Origin: a virus
Taxonomy: Duplodnaviria > Heunggongvirae > Uroviricota > Caudoviricetes
Strand: one strand, 5' to 3'
Virus record (IMG/VR): IMGVR_UViG_2802429221_000010
Length of the DNA: 17,400 nt
Of the stretch, positions 15,994 through 17,400 are shown one piece after another. Position 1 is the first letter of the stretch, and each line of letters opens with the position of its first letter. Below the pieces are notes generated by a model that ran no database searches, was not told the origin of the DNA, and was given only the letters and a program-made list of their open reading frames with translations. A program made the translations under genes and the position numbers.

Positions 15994-17400
15994 TCAAGCT
16001 ACCGCATATTGATTATTAAAATCGATAGTATTGTTATAATTTGTCAATTGCCTTAGTTTTTGGATGTTGTTAATAATAGCTAAATGGTGTTCTTTCTCAG
16101 TGCCGTGATAAGAGAGTACGCTTTTTTTATTCTGCATTGTAGAGACATATGCATCAATGGATTTTTTTATTATCGCAGTTTTATGTATTTTTGGTTCAAG
16201 TAACAGTGATTGTTCTATACAAGAGATTGCATCCTCAATTCTTTCATTATATATGTTTACCAGTGACTTATAGTAGTATAGGGAAGCGACATCTAATATT
16301 TTTATTTGTGCATGATCAAAAAAAATACGTGATGTTGTTGCTTGTCCGGAAAGACCAGTTATCAGCCCCATAATTCCTAATATCTTACCATCAAAAATAG
16401 CTTTATCTGATACCTTATCTATAAATTCTAATGCCTTTTGAGTAGCATGTTTATGTTCATATATACCATGAAGAGCCAGAGACATATGGCATTCAGCTAA
16501 CAGACAATAGCATTCATTTATTAATAACTGAGCATTGTATTTTTTTATCAGGTTTTCAAATATAGTTATTGCTTTGACAATGCTTTCTGGTGTGAACTCA
16601 TTTAGTGCATTTTTCCCAGCAGACATTTCTTTGGATAAAACATGCTCATTAGATGATTCGTTTTGGCTAATCAATCCTGGTGCAGTTTCAGGATCCTTCA
16701 TGACCATATACAAGTTACTTATTATAAATTGTGATATTTTTTGTATATCATCAGCCTGAAGATGAGTGCTGGCAACAAGATAAAAACTTTTTGCATCGAT
16801 CACCTCAACATATAAGCTGTTTGATGTGTCATGTTGGTTAATCCTTCCTGTTATAAAATAATCTGGTTTGAATCTGGCCAGAAAAGCTGTTTGGGATTTA
16901 TTATCTATACAATACTGGGTTGCAGCCATTGGGTATATATATAGGTTCTCGTTTTTTTTATTTGAAATGAACTGTATAAGCTCTTGATTAAGTGTTAATG
17001 GATCCTGGTGGCTGTGAGACGTTGTAAATGGGAATAAAGCAATAGTGCTTCCTGCTTCATTATATTGATTTCCTTTTATTTTGAATACTTGTCCACTGAA
17101 TCGGTAACCTTTTCTATATATGGTTTCTATACAACGGGTATAACCAACTTGTTCAAAAATACATCTTAATGAATATATACAACGTGTAAGGGACTCATCA
17201 CTTACAATTACATTTTTCCACACGGATTCGATGATCATATCTTTTGATACAACATTGCCAGCAGATTCAAGCAATACAAATAATACACCTAGCTCTTTGG
17301 GGGGAATGTAAGATTGCTCATTCCCTTTAGTAAGAATACCATCTTCTGTCAGTATTATCCCATCAGGGAAATGATATGAAAATTTAATTTCTAAATCCAT
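15994..17400 (-). CDS. HilA-family transcriptional regulator (OmpR/ToxR-type winged-helix N-terminus, TPR-like C-terminus)
   Basis: 468-aa ORF. N-terminal [51 protein letters not shown]...[11 protein letters not shown]...IALFPF matches Salmonella HilA ([51 protein letters not shown]...IETLYGQGYRF...LAILPF). Central [16 protein letters not shown] matches HilA CALAECYLSMAQMGIF. Very AT-rich. Start coincides with the window edge. Confidence 0.85.

Follow-up and report, generated by a model that had tools for sequence, protein, structure and literature searches.

A YgeH-like regulator of the HilA family retained without adjoining type III secretion genes at the glyU locus of Escherichia marmotae

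Introduction

A 17,400-nucleotide stretch of DNA catalogued as a virus of the Caudoviricetes (IMG/VR record IMGVR_UViG_2802429221_000010; this whole stretch is termed the window below) ends in a minus-strand gene, at positions 15994 to 17400, for a regulator related to HilA of Salmonella. Such a gene at the edge of a mobile element raises the question of whether the regulator belongs to the element, to a secretion island beyond the edge of the window, or to neither. An earlier note on this DNA, made from the sequence alone, had described a HilA-family regulator in AT-rich DNA adjacent to the element, had proposed that the element and a defence-like gene pair lie within or next to a horizontally acquired and probably H-NS-silenced region, and had directed attention to type III secretion genes beyond position 17400. 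This interpretation is supported in its essentials. [quoted passage not shown] Most likely (with a probability of roughly 0.8), this E. marmotae orthologue encodes a soluble HilA-family transcription factor that is still functional, is repressed by H-NS and acts outside the secretion operons that have been lost.

Results and Discussion

Assignment to the HilA/YgeH family

By the open reading frame (ORF) list and translation of the window, the ygeH-like coding sequence was found to be complete, with its ATG at 17400-17398, its stop codon at 15996-15994 and an uninterrupted minus-strand frame of 468 amino acids plus stop. When the protein was compared to family models, matches were detected to Pfam Trans_reg_C (OmpR/ToxR-type; residues 32-101, E 2.4e-13), to the NCBIfam YgeH model NF008870 (residues 1-454 against a model length of 458; 643 bits, E 2.9e-193) and to the NCBIfam HilA/EilA model NF009037 (residues 13-427; 265 bits, E 1.1e-78). 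By BLASTP, the protein was 62% identical to E. coli YgeH in a gap-free alignment of 453 amino acids and 29% identical to HilA across 411 amino acids (E 8e-53), the latter with a HilA query validated only by an end-to-end match of 1119.7 bits to the equivalog model for HilA/EilA. The protein was similar to HilA/EilA and YgeH in a colinear manner along its full length, including the central domain and the C-terminal tetratricopeptide repeat (TPR) region. NCBIfam matches to CadC (38 bits), PhoB and other response regulators were weak and confined to the DNA-binding domain. Judged from these sequence comparisons, homology to the HilA family is far beyond chance. The family assignment of the earlier note and its alignment with Salmonella HilA were thus borne out, and the choice it had left between hilA and the HilA-like gene of ETT2 falls to ygeH, by the 62% identity and the same locus. 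A PADLOC scan of the regulator returned no match, and the protein is therefore not regarded as a defence component.

Compared to E. coli YgeH (458 amino acids), the E. marmotae regulator has ten extra C-terminal residues and is far better conserved in its DNA-binding domain (84.5% identity) than in its central and C-terminal domains (about 55%). With HilA, encoded on pathogenicity island 1 (SPI-1) of Salmonella, and EilA of enteroaggregative E. coli (EAEC) 042, the regulator shares a three-part architecture, although its identity to EilA (P0017) is only about 29% and it lacks approximately 90-100 C-terminal residues of HilA (553 amino acids) and EilA (563 amino acids). Unlike the genes for HilA and EilA, the E. 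marmotae gene adjoins no secretion apparatus genes.

Start codon and source of the window

The end of the window coincides with the start codon of the regulator, so the reading frame was examined beyond position 17400 in an overlapping E. marmotae contig (L056). Upstream of the ATG in this contig, an in-frame TAG is found two codons away and the motif AGAGG 9 nucleotides away, and the ATG at the window edge is on these grounds the true start of a complete ORF. Two relatives of 482 amino acids (P0003 and P0004) begin 14 codons earlier (MQDAKNHKLNRGEL...), in the segment corresponding to L056 positions 9959-10000, just past window position 17400. In the frame of this extension, the E. marmotae contig reads MQDANSHKTHRG followed by a TAG stop; the 14-codon N-terminal extension is therefore cut off and the downstream ATG used.

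The same contig was identical to window positions 5994-17400 (0 mismatches in 11,407 nucleotides), and a second contig (L058, 4,215 nucleotides) was 100% identical to positions 1-4215. On this sequence identity, the window is E. marmotae DNA. The exact regulator protein was present on many E. marmotae contigs, and 133 index blocks in the contig collection listed the exact window allele (24 contigs read). By contrast to these matches, a megablast search of window positions 15400-17400 against 5,426 complete E. coli genomes revealed no near match to the regulator gene, and the window is therefore not from E. coli; only with a more sensitive blastn search was E. coli ygeH recovered, at about 71% identity. 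The AT-richness described in the earlier note was likewise confirmed, as the GC content is 32.8% in the regulator gene and 28.6% in the intergenic region upstream of it, compared to about 50% in flanking housekeeping genes.

Gene order at the glyU locus

In E. marmotae contigs with an empty integration site, the gene order was found to be ygeA-araE-kduD-kduI-yqeF-yqeG-yqeH-yqeI-yqeJ, followed by the regulator, the tRNA-Gly(CCC) gene glyU, actS, xdhABC and ygeV. E. coli K-12 has the same frame, except that yqeK, ygeF and ygeG precede ygeH, and ygeH is separated from glyU by the degraded ETT2 genes ygeI to ygeQ. The regulator lies between yqeJ and glyU in the orientation of ygeH and has a homologous upstream region: about 170 bp upstream of its start are homologous to the region upstream of E. 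coli ygeH, and about 250 bp can be aligned across five species with conserved blocks. By position, the gene thus corresponds to ygeH. It resembles the E. coli gene, characterized in EAEC 042 (PMC4210603), in its place after yqeJ on the glyU side, its low GC content and its upstream region, and differs from it in the absence of yqeK, ygeF and ygeG upstream and of ygeI to ygeQ downstream; its stop codon is 38-39 nucleotides from glyU. The stretch from yqeH to ygeH as a whole is low in GC (29-40%), a type of DNA that is regarded in the literature as horizontally acquired. The 465 bp between yqeJ and the conserved region upstream of ygeH resembled neither E. coli nor E. albertii DNA.

Read from contig L056, the genes past position 17400 are yqeJ, yqeI, yqeH and yqeG; type III secretion genes were absent beyond this position in the contig. 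The locus is therefore a remnant that holds regulators only and not a secretion island. Within 10 kb on either side of the regulator, the E. marmotae contigs contained no apparatus, chaperone (ygeG) or SLT genes and no yqeK. Searches of an E. marmotae locus (L001), an E. ruysiae-like locus (L007) and the window by tblastn and blastn likewise detected no remnant of K-12 yqeK, ygeG, ygeI or ygeQ, nor of E. albertii yqeK, ygeG, ygeI, the SLT gene (ygeJ) or ygeK. The earlier proposal of a horizontally acquired surrounding held insofar as glyU borders ETT2 and the yqeH-ygeH stretch is AT-rich, but the locus retains only regulators. Similarly, of the contrary outcome which that note had considered, unrelated OmpR-family regulators as closest homologues and no secretion context, the former did not apply, the homologues being YgeH and HilA, while secretion genes are indeed absent at the E. 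marmotae locus.

The layout of yqeH, yqeI and yqeJ with the regulator and no secretion genes recurred in E. ruysiae, E. whittamii and Escherichia sp. E1V33. Apparatus genes follow ygeH in E. coli, Shigella and E. albertii, and likewise follow distant homologues in Chromobacterium and Pseudomonas. In E. albertii, whose YgeH is of the same locus and family and 52% identical to the E. marmotae protein, a full secretion apparatus is present: ygeH is followed by ygeI, an SLT gene, ygeK, orgA and homologues of prgK/J/I/H and spaS/R/Q/P, none of which follow the E. marmotae gene. If ETT2 was gained at glyU before the split of E. albertii and E. coli, as Ooka et al. concluded (PMC4700944), the state of the cryptic clades is most simply explained by a deletion that spared the regulators. 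The spacer from regulator to glyU varies among the secretion-less species (39 nucleotides versus about 165-180 nucleotides), and a single ancestral deletion is therefore not proven. Full-text literature searches returned no paper on ETT2 remnants in E. marmotae or other cryptic clades. An apparent truncation of the neighboring yqeI, called at 208 amino acids by the gene caller in some contigs, was rejected; the 271-amino-acid frame is intact in all contigs checked, and the shorter form reflects the start-site call only.

Selection and divergence

The 468-amino-acid frame of the regulator was intact in all four secretion-less species, which are separated by synonymous divergence (dS) of 0.2-0.8. 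Among these species, the ratio of nonsynonymous to synonymous divergence (dN/dS) was 0.13-0.17 across the whole gene; by region, it was 0.03-0.06 for the DNA-binding domain and 0.13-0.25 for the TPR part. A gene that drifts without function is expected to approach a dN/dS of 1 and to accumulate stop codons. In the secretion-less species, the regulator has a dN/dS far from 1 and no accumulated stops, and the intact ORF together with low dN/dS argues against a decaying relic. When E. marmotae was compared to K-12, YqeG and ActS were 93-98% identical at the protein level with a dN/dS of 0.02-0.04, while YgeH, YqeI and YqeJ were 62-73% identical with a dN/dS of about 0.2. A dN/dS of about 0.2 was likewise obtained when the comparison was with species in which the secretion system is retained, and there is therefore no sign of relaxed selection.

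For all genes of the locus, the order of divergence from E. marmotae was the same, with the E. ruysiae-like species (E. ruysiae/E. whittamii) closest, followed by E. coli and then E. albertii, which fits fast vertical evolution of the AT-rich island genes. Along the locus, a sharp step in divergence was observed between Escherichia species (loci L001, L007, L006 and L008): YqeG, YqeH and ActS are 91-99% identical, and YqeI, YqeJ and YgeH are 52-88% identical with a dN/dS 5-10 times higher.

Domain architecture

An AlphaFold2 model of the regulator (35 homologues as input; mean pLDDT, the predicted local distance difference test score, of 78) was compared to known structures by Foldseek. The model is divided into a winged-helix DNA-binding domain of OmpR/ToxR-type (residues 5-109, minus-strand positions 17074 to 17388; pLDDT 80-95, encompassing the Pfam Trans_reg_C match), a central alpha/beta domain that resembles TolB-N and the CadC sensor (residues 118-234, minus strand, 16699 to 17049) and a C-terminal all-helical TPR-like domain (residues 249-454, minus strand, 16039 to 16656). 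The winged helix matched the DNA-binding domains of CadC, ToxR and PhoB with a target-normalized template modeling (TM) score of about 0.8. Two stretches of this domain are identical to E. coli YgeH by BLASTP and, by their position in the predicted fold, are presumed to be the recognition helix and wing. For the central domain, assigned from predicted secondary structure and Foldseek, matches were found to the N-terminal domain of TolB, to PelC and to the periplasmic domain of CadC, and A121, P124/F125 and P179/D180 are invariant in the family alignment. The C-terminal domain was modeled as 10 helices; here the family profile matched TPR proteins of the Protein Data Bank (PDB) at E values of 5e-16 to 1e-8, and Pfam TPR_2 was matched below threshold at residues 372-404 (E 0.037).

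No Response_reg (receiver) domain was detected with Pfam or NCBIfam, the N-terminus being taken up by the winged helix. A transmembrane segment was likewise not found: the best 19-residue Kyte-Doolittle mean (1.44) falls inside the winged helix, and the linker at residues 105-120 is polar. The protein is therefore soluble, as is HilA.

Proposed function

By homology with YgeH of E. coli 042, which substitutes for HilA in Salmonella via invF and activates ETT2 operons (PMC4210603), the winged helix of the E. marmotae regulator would bind promoter DNA and the protein would activate transcription, with the central alpha/beta and TPR-like domains probably used for self-association or for binding of a partner or signal. 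The gene stands as the last of an ETT2 remainder beside glyU, from which, in E. marmotae and its sister species, apparatus, chaperone and effector genes of ETT2 are missing and in which only yqeH, yqeI, yqeJ and ygeH are left. Its own expression is probably held low by H-NS, as suggested by the AT-richness of the gene and its upstream region and by the precedent of ygeH in E. coli 042, which is repressed by H-NS bound at its promoter (PMC4210603). Because the cognate operons are gone from the locus, present targets would have to lie elsewhere, and the activator may now act on promoters outside the lost secretion operons. In E. coli, regulators of degraded ETT2 islands are reported to affect genes outside ETT2 (reviewed in PMC11068852).

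Several observations weigh against a functional orthologue of this kind. A consensus promoter/terminator scan over the regulator and the DNA upstream of it gave no enrichment (12 sites versus 14.5 expected from shuffles), although such a result is uninformative. An intact ORF is no proof of activity, since some natural alleles of YgeH are inactive, e.g., that of E. coli O157 (PMC4210603). The protein is 62% identical to its E. coli counterpart compared to 93-98% for the flanking YqeG and ActS, and the dS of ygeH (1.27-1.30) exceeds that of yqeG (0.53) and actS (0.90). The regulator also falls under both of the curated NCBI equivalog cutoffs (643 versus 800 bits for YgeH; 265 versus 589 bits for HilA/EilA). 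On the YgeH model, the orthologue from E. albertii, whose ETT2 island is intact, scores 542 bits and fails as well, and the cutoff therefore appears to be drawn around E. coli sequences rather than around the orthologue group; failure to reach it may be the reason why sources call the regulator merely a winged helix-turn-helix protein.

As the locus lacks both the ygeG chaperone gene and every cognate ETT2 operon, the regulator could be a silent relic, left without a task by the deletion of ETT2, silenced by H-NS and drifting towards a pseudogene. The faster nonsynonymous evolution of the regulator relative to the flanking genes (5-10 times; dN/dS of about 0.2 versus 0.02-0.04) and the inactive natural allele of E. 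coli O157 (PMC4210603) are consistent with this explanation. It is nevertheless unlikely when set against an ORF kept intact across four species, the dN/dS values among them (above all in the DNA-binding domain), the same dN/dS in comparison with species that retain the secretion system, and the recurrence of the exact window allele across the contig collection. The high dS and low identity to E. coli (62% of amino acids, 70% of nucleotides) leave room for replacement by an old divergent allele, i.e., for a separately acquired or recombined HilA-like gene having displaced the original ygeH at the same site, and the score under the YgeH cutoff and the 465 bp of dissimilar DNA after yqeJ may be read in the same way. 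Such a replacement is quite improbable given that the position and orientation are those of ygeH, that divergence is graded in the same way in the neighboring yqeI and yqeJ, that the order of species in this divergence tracks the flanking genes, that the upstream 250 bp can be aligned in all five species, and that the alignment with E. coli YgeH is free of gaps.

A membrane-bound one-component sensor of ToxR/CadC-type, or a response regulator of OmpR-type, in place of a soluble HilA-type activator is suggested by the top Foldseek matches, which are to two parts of CadC, its periplasmic sensor domain (E 2.4e-7) and its DNA-binding domain, and by the weak NCBIfam matches to CadC and PhoB. This assignment is very remote, as the protein has neither a transmembrane segment nor a receiver domain, carries its winged helix at the N-terminus, and matches the HilA and YgeH models at 265-643 bits compared to 38 bits for CadC; for a CadC-like membrane sensor, the sequence amounts to an effective refutation. 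The likeness to E. coli CadC is itself of two kinds: the N-terminal winged helix gave a target-normalized TM score of 0.81 to 5JU7, and the rest of the model is similar to the periplasmic sensor of CadC with its two subdomains, while the E. marmotae protein differs from CadC in having no transmembrane helix and in a sequence similarity limited to the DNA-binding domain. The nearest structure to residues 118-454 of the model was this sensor domain (3LY9, E 2.4e-7), at low TM scores (0.32/0.44). With both parts of the model resembling CadC, HilA and YgeH may be viewed as CadC-like regulators without a membrane anchor.

With the regulator taken as a functional orthologue of YgeH, a further proposal is made only tentatively, at somewhat less than an even chance: that a YgeH regulon is conserved independently of its own secretion system in at least four Escherichia species that keep the regulators under purifying selection and with unaltered DNA-contacting residues. 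[quoted passage not shown] Were this so, these species would offer, as a natural experiment, an island regulator whose cross-talk function can be viewed in isolation, and the cryptic Escherichia, with regulators only and the apparatus absent at the locus, would be the cleanest setting for a secretion-independent regulon. In this respect, a master regulator that is conserved although its island is missing is of modest interest.

The integrative element in glyU

The main value of the regulator is one of orientation, as it fixes the species (E. marmotae) and the address (the glyU/ETT2 locus) of the window; with the regulator as anchor and flank, the neighboring DNA is revealed as a P4-like island that integrates in glyU. 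By Pfam and PADLOC, this element (positions 1 to 15955, plus strand) encodes an integrase, AntA, a D5-type primase, ProQ/FinO-like and PerC proteins and an NsnA-like/HEPN pair. Its right end is marked by attR at positions 15938 to 15955 (plus strand), a duplicate of the 3' end of tRNA-Gly(CCC) glyU with one C missing (TTCCCTTCGCCGCTCCA) by comparison to the intact tRNA in contigs L001 and L058. No intact tRNA gene was detected in the window. In contig L058, intact glyU is located 164 nucleotides upstream of the integrase and is preceded by actS and xdhA. From the attR remnant and this intact glyU, the element of about 16 kb is concluded to have integrated in glyU. Between attR and the regulator stop codon lies a chromosomal spacer of 38 nucleotides (positions 15956 to 15993), which extends to the former glyU 3' end and matches the spacer of the empty-site contig L001; in empty-site contigs, the regulator stop is 39 nucleotides from the glyU 3' end and the two genes converge. 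As attR is only 38 nucleotides from its stop codon, the regulator is part of the chromosomal flank and not cargo of the element, in agreement with the earlier description of it as adjacent to the element.

The attR-proximal gene pair consists of a GmrSD_N/DUF262-type protein (13425-14480, plus strand; PADLOC NsnA match, E 7e-65) and a RiboL-PSP HEPN protein (14482-15411, plus strand; Pfam E 1.6e-6, no PADLOC match), and is probably an anti-phage cargo module. In another E. marmotae genome (L003; CP058209.1, positions 11823-21407), a different P4-like element occupies the same glyU site. This element has the D5-type primase, ProQ-like and PerC core in common with window positions 1-15955, and beside attR carries a Pa193_gp24-like protein and others instead of the NsnA/HEPN pair, so that the end near attR has the look of a variable hotspot for cargo. 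By megablast, unannotated DNA of 56 complete E. coli genomes matched the right end of the element in the window (about 15712-15972) at 80-93% identity, which suggests that related elements are present in E. coli.

In pathogenic E. coli, activators of the PerC type take part in cross-talk with virulence regulons. Inside the element, at 8326-9152 (plus strand), a ProQ/FinO-family gene (180 amino acids) adjoins a PerC-family gene (95 amino acids). Two further plus-strand ORFs gave no Pfam or PADLOC match: one of 302 amino acids right after the integrase (1246-2154; 32-37% GC), which is kept beside the integrase in three contigs (L058-L060), and one of 380 amino acids (9287-10429), also present in L056, with a lipoprotein-like N-terminus (LTGC) and coiled-coil-like repeats. 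Two plus-strand ORFs of 74 amino acids each (16149-16373 and 16535-16759) are antisense inside the regulator gene, whose own frame is the one under purifying selection. A plus-strand ORF of 512 amino acids (3325-4863) is of odd composition and overlaps several ORFs on the minus strand (4005-4349 and 4480-4980).
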